Shown: positions 42,001-45,000 of the stretch, piece by piece
Position numbering within the stretch: the first letter of the stretch is position 1
Layout: the number at the start of each line of letters is the position of its first letter
IMG/VR virus record: IMGVR_UViG_2718217787_000014
Strand: one strand, 5' to 3'
From: a virus
Lineage: Duplodnaviria > Heunggongvirae > Uroviricota > Caudoviricetes
DNA: 49,036 nt
Made by a program: the position numbers

Positions 42001-45000
42001 TCTTCAGGAAACTGGATGGAGCCAGGCTGAGCTTGCCCGTAGAATTGGTGTGACACAACAAACTGTTCAACAATGGGTCAGCGGTAAGGCTACACCTAAA
42101 GCCTCAAGTTTGGATAAACTGGTTGAGGTTTCAGGGCATCCATTGCATTGGTTTTTATTGCCTCCTGAAGAGTGTGAGCAAATTTTCACCCCTGACACGA
42201 TGAAAATTGGTCCTCGCCAACGCGAACTGCTCCAAGCTTTTAGTGCGTTTCCTGAGGAAGACCAAGAAAAAATGCTTCAAGAAATCAAAGACAAGAAAAA
42301 ATCAATGGAAGAAACCATTGCTAGGTGGCTGGCGGCACAAAAAAGCCGCCGGGCGTGACCACAGTACAAGAAGAGGAGTTATGCCATGGGTACAGCCCTT
42401 TCTCCGATAGTTTCAGAATTCGAAACTACCGAACAAGAAAACAGTTACAACGAATGGTTGCGCACTAAAGTAACGTCAAGCCTTGCAGACACTCGCCCCG
42501 CAATTCCACATGACGAGGTAATGGCTGAAATGGAAAATCTTATTGCTCAAATTGCTGTAACTAACAAGAGCGAGTAATGTTACCCATTTTATGGCTACCG
42601 TCTGCTCGCGATGATTTGCGCCAGATCATAACTTACATCGCCAAGGAGAACCCACCGGCAGCACGTAGACTAAAAATACGCATTGAAACATCGGTATTAC
42701 CTCTATCTGAGCATCCGTACTTATATCCACCAAGCGAACGGGTTTCTGGATTGAGAGAGATCGTGACCCACCCTAACTACATAATCCTGTACAGAGTAGC
42801 TGCTTCAAGCATTGAGATTGTAAGCGTGACACATTCTCGGCGACAATTTCCCTTCTCTATCTGAGTTGAACAATTTTCATACTCCCTCTTTCGAGGGATT
42901 TTTTTGCCCAAAACAACAATTAAAAACTGTTGACACAAAAACAGTTTTTTATTGTAGATTACATACACCAACCACCCACCCCGCCCCACAGAACGCCGGG
43001 CAATACTTCGAGTTACCAAGCAGTGGTCAGGGGGTAAGTAGCCAGCCCGAGGCGTATGAACATGACGGCAGGGTTCAACTTTAATAACTATGCAGCAGGT
43101 TTTTGTTCCGCTACCCGGCGTTAAGGGGAAATGAGGTCAACATGGATACTATCGATCTTGGCAACAACGAATCTCTGGTGTACGGCGTGTTTCCCAACCA
43201 GGACGGTACATTCACCGCGATGACGTATACCAAAAGCAAAACGTTTAAAACCGAAAATGGTGCCCGTCGCTGGCTGGAAAGAAACTCAGGTGAGTGATAT
43301 GGATTTCGACACAATCATGGAAAAGGCTTACGAAGAATACTTCGAAGGCCTTGCCGAAGGCGAGGAAGCTCTCAGCTTCAGTGAGTTTAAACAGGCGCTT
43401 TCCAGTTCGGCAAAATCTAACGACTAACGGAGTTAAAGATGGAATTTAAAGATTTACTAAAAGAAATCCAGGAAATTGCAGCACATGCACTTCACCAACG
43501 TCTGAACGAAGTTGAATTAGAATCTGCAACGAAGAAATACATTGATAATATGGCTCGTAATGTGCGCGATGCGTTTACCGGATTGTACTCTGTTTCGGTA
43601 ACAAACAACCAGAATACTGAAGAAACTGCAAAGCGGATTGCCTCGGTGATGGGTTTTCATGTCGAGGAAAAGTATTCAAAAAAAGAATTCTGGAAAACTA
43701 CAAAAAAATTGCAGAGCGAGAACTGTCATCTCCTGCGGCAATCGCTTCTTTCTATGAGGAAAGTTATTCAGATGACACAGGATTACCGGAACTGCTCTCA
43801 TTACTTGAAAAATTCGGAATTATCATGAAAGGGACTGCGTCGGCGGATTTCACATACTCAATGATGGCTGCTGATGGAGAGCCTTTTCCTCCCGAACTTA
43901 AAATAACCCCCGGCAATCATCCGATGGTAACAATAAGAGCAATAGAGAATTACTGGTTTAATCCAGTTCAACAATAGTTGGTCTTTGCAATATTTTTAAT
44001 GGGCCACTACGCCCTTAATCTCGGGCGGCGTTTAACTCTTTATTCAGTAAATCAGACTGATACTGATTTGGCTTTGTAATGATACTGTCAAGTTTTGATA
44101 TATGAAATTCAACATGTTCTGGACAGTTAAAAATGTAATAACCGCCCTTCTCTAAAAAGCCAGAAAGAGCGTTACAGGCAGGGCATGGTTTGTTTGGCAT
44201 TTTATCCTCCATTAAGGGCTGAATTAAAAATGGAGACCAACACGCTGCTACGTGTGGTCGTGCGCCGGACACAGATAAGAATCCGGCACTGACAGTTTAC
44301 TGAAAGGATATATCCCTGAAAAGTCAGGGCATAACACGAAAGTGCACGGCGAAGTCCTTCTCCCTTAGAGCCGTCGTTAAATTTAATTCGACCGTGCGCT
44401 TCCGGTTGTGGCAATCCGCGAAATGGCGCGGCGGTAAGTATGGCGGGGTTATTCTTTCCCCGTTGAGGACACCGGGTTGTCAGGTTGACCATACGCTTAA
44501 GTGACAACCCCGCTGCAACGCCCTCTGTTATCAATATTCTGGTGACATTTGGCGGTATCAGTTTTACTCCGTAACTGCTCTGCCGCCCTTTTTTAAAAGT
44601 GAATTTTGTGATGCGGTGAATGCGGCTCAGCGCACGCGGAACAGTTAAATCGGTAAAGCGGTCATTTGCTGAGTAACGAGAATGCTCTGTATCCGGCGTT
44701 AATTGTTAACTGGTTAACGTCACCTGGAGGCACCAGGCACCGCATCACAAAATTCATTGTTGAGGACGCGATAATGGAAAAGTTATCATGTAATGCCAGC
44801 ACGTCTGAACTTCGTTTCGAAATTGGCGTTATCACTGGAGACAAAACATTTATTGAAGACGCCATTAAGCAGAGAAAACTCGAGCAGGACCTGTTAAATG
44901 AAGTATGCATTCCTTCAATGCTGGCTCGTCTGGACCTGCTGCAAAAAGGATATAAACAATGAATACAACATTTGCACTCGTTCTGACAGTTTATCTTGTT

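Follow-up and report, generated by a model that had tools for sequence, protein, structure and literature searches.

We analysed a 49,036-nucleotide (nt) stretch of viral DNA, IMG/VR record IMGVR_UViG_2718217787_000014 (the window, meaning the whole stretch). Our data indicate that its lambdoid immunity region, which is that of the cryptic prophage CP-933M/Sp4, carries a three-component type II toxin–antitoxin (TA) operon, paaR1-paaA1-parE1, and that the TA pair very probably acts as an addiction module. A 2.4-kb region is 100% identical to many Escherichia coli O157:H7 chromosomes, including that of EDL933 (NZ_CP008957.1, 1254151–1256551), and the prophage integrase adjoins yccA. The prophage at yccA is Sp4 (PMC10925052), Sp4 is CP-933M (PMC2884950), and Jurenas et al. 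2021 located a homologue of paaR2-paaA2-parE2 on CP-933M (PMC8630535). The locus is therefore identified as paaR1-paaA1-parE1. The locus and its mechanism have already been published under this name, and RefSeq already annotates paaA1-parE1 as a type II TA system; the pair was thus identified correctly but is no new finding.

The open reading frame (ORF) list and the Pfam and NCBIfam profiles give positions 41167–43297 the layout of a lambdoid immunity region (Table 1). The repressor gene and a cro-like gene diverge, they have operators in common, and a second operator site lies before the early-left operon. The genes paaR1, paaA1 and parE1 are on one strand, separated by a 27-nt gap and then joined by a 1-nt overlap, which is the order (regulator, antitoxin, toxin) and the close spacing of three-component paaR-paaA-parE systems. 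The paaA1 stop codon TAA (42575–42577) has one base in common with the parE1 ATG (42577–42579). This TAATG overlap, through which translation of parE1 is predicted to be coupled to that of paaA1, was part of the two-gene module described in the initial annotation, and the coordinates given there agree to the base with the ORF list. Both ORFs are intact, and a GAGGAG Shine–Dalgarno (SD) sequence lies 7 nt 5' of the paaA1 ATG (42386). A predicted intrinsic terminator of the three-gene set is found only 3' of the third gene, parE1.

The pair had been called ParDE-like, and profile searches upheld this for the toxin but not for the antitoxin. PaaA1 matched Pfam PaaA2 (PF21217) with an E-value of 5.6e-19 and 68.3 bits (cut-off 27), its residues 16–48 covering the whole 33-position model, and this was its sole Pfam match at E ≤ 0.1. 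Its sole NCBIfam match was the 45-position antitoxin model NF050103 (1.6e-26, 92.1 bits, cut-off 50). Among solved structures it matched PaaA2 (3zbe, 5cw7; E 1e-20), and it is 70% identical to PaaA2 of the reference PaaR2-PaaA2-ParE2 locus, which was taken from an ST131 genome and whose repressor starts with MQKKE as in PMC8630535. No ribbon-helix-helix (RHH), ParD or helix-turn-helix (HTH) model in Pfam or NCBIfam matched PaaA1 at E ≤ 0.1. A ParD, RelB-RHH or CC2985-type antitoxin was ruled out, because no such domain is found and the PaaA match is found instead. By its profile matches the antitoxin belongs to the PaaA family and not to ParD, and its DNA binding is presumably supplied by the separate repressor. 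Canonical ParD-ParE systems (RK2, Caulobacter, Vibrio) have the same toxin fold family, PF05016, and likewise place the antitoxin gene first, with the two genes overlapping or coupled. They differ in that PaaA1 has no RHH domain and leaves autoregulation to an HTH repressor encoded by a gene of its own.

ParE1 matched Pfam ParE_toxin (PF05016) with an E-value of 2.9e-17 and 63.5 bits (cut-off 23), residues 4–91 aligning with model positions 1–89 of 89. It is 67% identical to ParE2 and matched the ParE2 structure 5cw7_B (E 3e-36); ParE2 was absent among the best 120 of 126 matches in the protein homology search. By homology the toxin is assigned to the ParE/RelE superfamily. PaaA1 and ParE1 matched no family in PADLOC-DB v2, and the repressor matched generic HTH regions only. 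A catalogued anti-phage defence system was rejected, since neither PaaA1 nor ParE1 had a PADLOC match.

The repressor gene encodes a protein with an HTH_3 domain (Pfam, 2.3e-12). Its match to the NCBIfam DicA model (51.5 bits) is below the cut-off of 101, and it is a weak full-length relative of K-12 DicA (28% identity, E 6e-12). PaaR1 and PaaR2 are 42% identical over the C-terminal 98 amino acids (aa) (E 1e-20), and their N-terminal HTH domains differ. The paaR1 gene has no SD sequence, and a putative -10 hexamer, TAAAAT, ends 6 nt 5' of its ATG. The arrangement TAAAAT-N6-ATG has the geometry of GATAAT-N6-ATG in paaR2, for which a leaderless start was mapped via 5' RACE (PMC8630535). By analogy, the paaR1 mRNA is probably leaderless.

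The operators of this repressor appear to be duplicated on the two sides of the operon. The motif ACAGTTTTTTATTG was scanned over the whole window with at most two mismatches and compared with 100 shuffles. Four copies were found where 0.41 were expected, and none of the 100 shuffles reached four. All of them lie at the sites that resemble OR and OL of lambda, and nowhere else in the window. They form two inverted pairs, one between the cro-like and repressor genes (41883–41896 and 41906–41919) and one 3' of the toxin gene (42917–42930 and 42941–42954), where the initial annotation had seen the operator half-site recur. Each 15-bp operator element has the form ACA-N9-TGT, and the two exact elements of the OR-like region are 15-nt arms, 100% complementary and 9 nt apart. 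A tentative third element (41931–41945) was read by eye and has no statistical support by itself. The OR-like region overlaps a divergent PR-like promoter on the minus strand (TTGATT-N18-TAGGCT) and a PRM-like promoter, whose -10 is the TAAAAT hexamer at 41945–41950. The hexamers of both were read by eye and have no statistical support by themselves. At the putative early-left promoter (PL-like site), an operator falls within the spacer between TTGACA and TAGATT. This site is, by analogy, the counterpart of PL933P with OL1-3 in the prophage CP-933P.

The paralogous locus of CP-933P/Sp12, paaR2-paaA2-parE2 (PDB 3zbe, 5cw7), has the same gene order, strand and divergent ydaS-ydaT pair. It also has in common with our locus a PaaA antitoxin without a DNA-binding domain, a ParE toxin, the repressor C-terminal domain, a second set of operators past parE in addition to that at OR, a promoter-to-ATG spacing that suits a leaderless repressor mRNA, and the YdaT site TTGATT-N6-AATCAA. 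The two loci differ in the repressor N-terminal domain and in the operator, which is ACAGTTTTTTATTGT in the window and a GTTTAGT-type repeat in CP-933P. The paaR1 locus is therefore a separate immunity specificity. In CP-933P, paaR2-paaA2-parE2 forms one operon, and a leaderless mRNA is translated into PaaR2, a CI analogue (PMC8630535). Within a 97-bp spacer, PaaR2 and YdaS, which is Cro-like, have operators that overlap, and PL933P with OL1-3 beyond parE2 is repressed about 100-fold by these two proteins (PMC8630535). In addition, YdaT turns on a promoter of PRE type that lies between ydaS and ydaT, and the locus stabilises an unstable plasmid (PMC8630535). The literature on the paralogue further describes degradation of PaaA2 by ClpXP and ClpAP. 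The initial annotation had placed the pair between the repressor gene and the early-left promoter, which matches the published layout of the paralogue (PMC8630535, PMC9986795). Its suggestions that the pair may be co-transcribed with the repressor and may stabilise the prophage correspond to the three-gene operon described for the paralogue (PMC8630535) and to the role proposed for it. The other role that it named, phage exclusion, is not the one proposed in print.

The putative YdaT operator at 41582–41599 is the sole match to TTGATT-N6-AATCAA without mismatch in the window, and in CP-933P an identical inverted repeat, located where ydaS ends, has been footprinted as the OM site (PMC9986795). 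It may provide a PRE-type alternative start for the TA operon. YdaT of the window is nearly identical, from end to end, to YdaT of CP-933P, whose structure has been solved (PDB 8bt1 and 3c4r, E 1e-82). The ydaS-like gene, labelled 'transcriptional regulator' in RefSeq, is separated from the repressor gene by 108 bp.

In the mechanism that we propose, PaaR1 would be a CI-like prophage repressor, transcribed rightward (in window coordinates) from the PRM-like promoter, probably without a leader. One transcript would contain paaR1, paaA1 and parE1 and end at the terminator at 42883–42906. PaaR1 and the competing Cro-like YdaS would bind the ACA-N9-TGT operators at OR (41882–41945) and at OL (42916–42955), thereby repressing both the divergent promoter of ydaS-ydaT and the PL-like promoter from which the ydfA...dicF-dicB operon is transcribed. 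The CII analogue YdaT would act at 41582–41599 to switch on the alternative upstream start of the TA operon. PaaA1 would be a small labile protein that wraps and neutralises ParE1. If the locus were lost or silenced, PaaA1 would be degraded and ParE1 would arrest or kill the cell. The pair would thus be an addiction module, and what it would stabilise is the prophage, in particular the immunity region. Our analysis itself showed the gene content, the homologies, the duplicated operators, the terminator, the identity to EDL933 and the conserved layout. The literature on the paralogue supplies the operon structure, the repression at OR and OL, the plasmid stabilisation and the role of ClpXP and ClpAP in degrading PaaA2, and we infer that all of these hold in the same way for the copy on CP-933M.

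Some observations weigh against an active addiction module of this kind. When the paralogue was studied in single cells, activation of the toxin was at no time seen (PMC8630535), and its physiological role therefore stays a proposal. A strict sigma-70 consensus scan with spacers of 16–18 nt called no PL, PR or PRM promoter. The PL-like site was not reported because its TTGACA–TAGATT spacer is 19 nt; in L003, one of the diverged homologous loci compared below, these hexamers are 18 nt apart. Since neither OR nor OL yielded a promoter in the generic scan, the hexamers were read by eye and by analogy, and the promoter assignments, made without a consensus match, are putative. The sole consensus sigma-70-like match in 41500–43300 is antisense inside parE1 (42817–42846, minus strand, TTGTCG-18-TACAAT). 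With one match found and 2.8 expected, it is probably due to chance. Finally, ParE2, the ParE of an E. coli O157 prophage studied by Sterckx et al. 2016, is reported neither to bind GyrA59 nor to inhibit gyrase (PMC10886550). This last point would also suit a toxin that is a RelE-type, ribosome-dependent mRNA interferase instead of a ParE-type topoisomerase poison, as would the fact that PF05016 spans both RelE and ParE and that the sole NCBIfam match of ParE1, to TIGR02385 RelE_StbE, is borderline (28.4 bits against a cut-off of 27.9). We consider an mRNA interferase improbable, because the best solved relatives of ParE1 (5cw7, 6x0a and 5ceg) are all ParE-named, and the reported nucleoid localisation and SOS induction fit a DNA-directed target better than mRNA cleavage.

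Comparison with other genomes addressed the conservation of the locus. A paaA-parE homologue was found by blastn in 832 of 5426 complete E. coli genomes (about 15%), and 436 genomes have the paaA1-parE1 DNA at 99% identity or more. Four diverged loci (L003, L004, L005 and L006) were compared with the window; the DNA identities of their TA genes, listed from high to low, are 86%, 80%, 68% and 67%. All four keep the order ydaT, cro-like gene, repressor, paaA and parE, followed by ydfA except in L003, with dicB further on. A hairpin and T-run of different sequence occupies the place of the window terminator in L003, L004 and L006. The repressors of the window and these loci have DNA-binding domains of four types, and each immunity type has its own sequence common to the cro-repressor spacer and the stretch 3' of parE. 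This common sequence is a long one in three cases (the window, L003 and L005) and a short one of 9–11 nt in the other two (L004 and L006). The PaaR1-type OR and repressor N-terminus occur in 509 of the E. coli genomes and the whole span from OR to ydfA in 508, and no allele of the PaaR1 immunity type without the TA pair was found among the 5426. In the phage collection, a ParE homologue was present in one record only, Escherichia phage Evi, which carries a PaaR2-type module.

CP-933M is cryptic and the paralogue showed no toxin activity at the single-cell level, as would be expected if the pair were an inert remnant in a decaying prophage. This is very improbable, because the ORFs are intact, coupled and conserved across diverged alleles. 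The SD sequence, the near-identity of the DNA in several hundred genomes, the layout kept by intact alleles at 67–86% DNA identity and the module of the isolated phage Evi all argue against decay. So does the literature: as far as the review PMC4803016 summarises Hallez 2010, there are two paralogous systems in O157:H7, both with toxicity and specific neutralisation, and the antitoxins do not cross-neutralise. The initial annotation had named homologous prophages that always carry the pair at this position, with no evidence of toxicity, as speaking against its reading. We found the constant position, and toxicity is reported in the sources just cited.

In Qin of K-12, a gene-free gap of 166 bp separates the dicA stop codon from the start of ydfA. 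In the window the corresponding gap, from the stop codon of the repressor gene to the start of ydfA (43142), is 783 bp, 277 bp of it after the end of parE1. The statement that the Qin repressor directly adjoins the promoter and ydfA was thus borne out. Both regions have a DicA-type repressor of equal length and architecture followed by the ydfA-ydfB...dicF-dicB operon, but the gap in the window holds paaA1-parE1 and a terminator. The pair had also been described as inserted. Its position agrees with this wording, but a simple insertion into a Qin-like backbone was rejected. The DNA becomes homologous to Qin again no earlier than about 50 bp 5' of ydfA, and this makes it not a clean insertion; no empty-site allele of the PaaR1 type was found among the 5426 genomes either. 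The phages Tritos, 666R9, 683R6 and pPE4, which are without the pair, have the repressor gene, about 120–150 bp, and then the conserved leader described below.

The sequence fits a mobile two-gene cassette captured 3' of a DicA-type repressor in a mosaic immunity region. This wording is supported because paaA-parE pairs occur in non-prophage contexts, and the capture hypothesis was also voiced by Jurenas et al. (PMC8630535). In Pollutimonas, paaA-parE lies behind an unrelated HTH gene in a non-prophage setting. In Bartonella vinsonii (LR134529.1; L012, 1745–3288), where the ParE is 74% identical to ParE1, no HTH gene lies directly upstream and the setting is chromosomal and non-lambdoid; the pair is directly 3' of a CAP12-PCTIR_TIR gene.

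The TA-linked repressors of the window (42220–42358), L004, L005 and L006 have nearly identical C-terminal regions of about 45 aa (..ELLQxFxAFPEEDQ..K.KK.SMEE.IARWLAAQK.RRA), and their N-terminal HTH domains and operators differ. DicA-type repressors without a TA pair (DicA, Tritos, 666R9 and pPE4) have a diverged version of this region only. The near-identity suggests joint inheritance, in a single block, of the TA pair with the C-terminal domain. A co-inherited cassette of repressor C-terminal domain, paaA, parE and terminator, whose TA pair would guard against replacement of the immunity region by recombination or would be functionally coupled to the repressor oligomerisation domain, is a speculative extension that we hold unlikely to be correct as stated. 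If true, it would go beyond a simple description as an addiction module.

In lambda, the accessory genes of cI-rexA-rexB are likewise co-transcribed with the repressor and placed between the repressor and PL, there are two operator clusters, with about 1 kb between them, at which the repressor acts, and Cro and CII (here their analogues) lie on the other side. The lambda system differs in that paaA1-parE1 has no sequence relationship to RexAB and its cargo is a type II TA system; moreover, PaaR2 lacks the RecA-sensitive peptidase domain of the lambda repressor, according to the literature on PaaR2. Prolic-Kalinsek et al. 2023 stated that paaA2-parE2 'replaces rexA and rexB' (PMC9986795), and paaA1-parE1 would occupy the same slot. 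The pair could therefore serve mainly in Rex-like exclusion or abortive infection, in which a superinfecting phage depletes PaaA1 or stops host expression and so releases ParE1. Its place in the rexAB slot, with expression alongside the repressor, and the TIR-domain gene next to the Bartonella pair are consistent with such a role. We think it doubtful as the main function, because PaaA1 and ParE1 matched no PADLOC defence model and published experiments favour plasmid stabilisation and saw no toxin activation. Stabilisation of the prophage as an addiction module is the function that we prefer.

Table 1. Features of the immunity region, in window coordinates
Feature	Position	Strand	Remarks
ydaT, CII-analogue regulator	41167..41592	-	Pfam YdaT_toxin 1.2e-9
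ydaS-like Cro analogue	41576..41848	-	divergent from repressor gene; Pfam YdaS_toxin 8e-10
Candidate YdaT operator	41582..41599	.	perfect TTGATT-N6-AATCAA; ydaS/ydaT junction, end of ydaS
OR-like operator region	41882..41945	.	two exact 15-bp ACA-N9-TGT elements, 41882-41896 and 41906-41920
paaR1, CI-analogue repressor	41957..42358	+	HTH_3, 133 aa; first of three operon genes
paaA1, antitoxin	42386..42577	+	63 aa, ATG start; no DNA-binding domain
parE1, ParE-family toxin	42577..42864	+	95 aa, ATG start
Predicted intrinsic terminator of paaR1-paaA1-parE1 transcript	42883..42906	+	TCCCTCTTTCGAGGGA (42883-42898), then TTTTTTT
OL/PL-like site (putative)	42916..42960	+	operators 42916-42930 and 42941-42955; -35 TTGACA 42930-42935; -10 TAGATT 42955-42960
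Conserved non-coding leader of PL transcript	42962..43141	+	5' of ydfA
ydfA (DUF1391), first gene of early-left (dicB) operon	43142..43297	+	Pfam DUF1391 1.7e-28; RefSeq name ydfA

A non-coding leader of about 175 nt directly follows the PL-like promoter and starts with a C-rich, G-poor sequence (CCAACCACCCACCCCGCCCCACAGAAC). It was matched in 3574 of the 5426 E. coli genomes, whatever the immunity type or the presence of the TA pair, and in 12 phage records, including 'Actinobacillus phage vB_Apl-pPE4' at 75.6% identity. The leader had no Rfam match at the gathering threshold or at E ≤ 10, its folding energy was ordinary (minimum free energy z-score +0.58), and RNAalifold on 10 aligned loci gave a penalty covariation term, that is, no covariation. 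HK022 was not among the phage DNA matches, which gives no sign of an HK022 put-like RNA. Possible functions of the leader are Rho-dependent attenuation and antitermination. The record of vB_Apl-pPE4 (PP818812.1) contains, together with this leader, an E. coli-type lambdoid immunity region (YdaT, cro-like gene, DicA-like repressor, Kil and exonuclease VIII). Its recorded host is Actinobacillus, and such an immunity region is unexpected in a Pasteurellaceae phage.

Rfam searches of the window placed the DicF small RNA at 44537–44588 (plus strand), within the early-left operon, and a sok antisense RNA of the hok/sok type I TA system at 35626–35800 (minus strand). Because the sok RNA is present besides paaA1-parE1, the prophage carries at least two unrelated TA systems. 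ALIL pseudoknots, the frameshift element of the IS3 family, are found at 817–933 and 27739–27855 (both minus strand), and their identical scores of 121.5 bits point to two copies of one insertion sequence. Three tRNA genes (30655–30728, 30745–30818 and 30829–30901, minus strand) and the small RNA STnc100 (30385–30575, minus strand) also lie inside the prophage.

Among three-component TA systems, the paralogue, which the same strain carries, is one of those known in more depth: structures have been solved for PaaA2, the PaaA2-ParE2 complex and YdaT, and its regulation has been dissected in full. The value of our study is confirmatory, in that the published architecture, with a TA pair in the rexAB slot and duplication of OR and OL, was recovered by the initial annotation from raw sequence. 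The repressor-linked TA architecture is general and has been kept across four immunity specificities.

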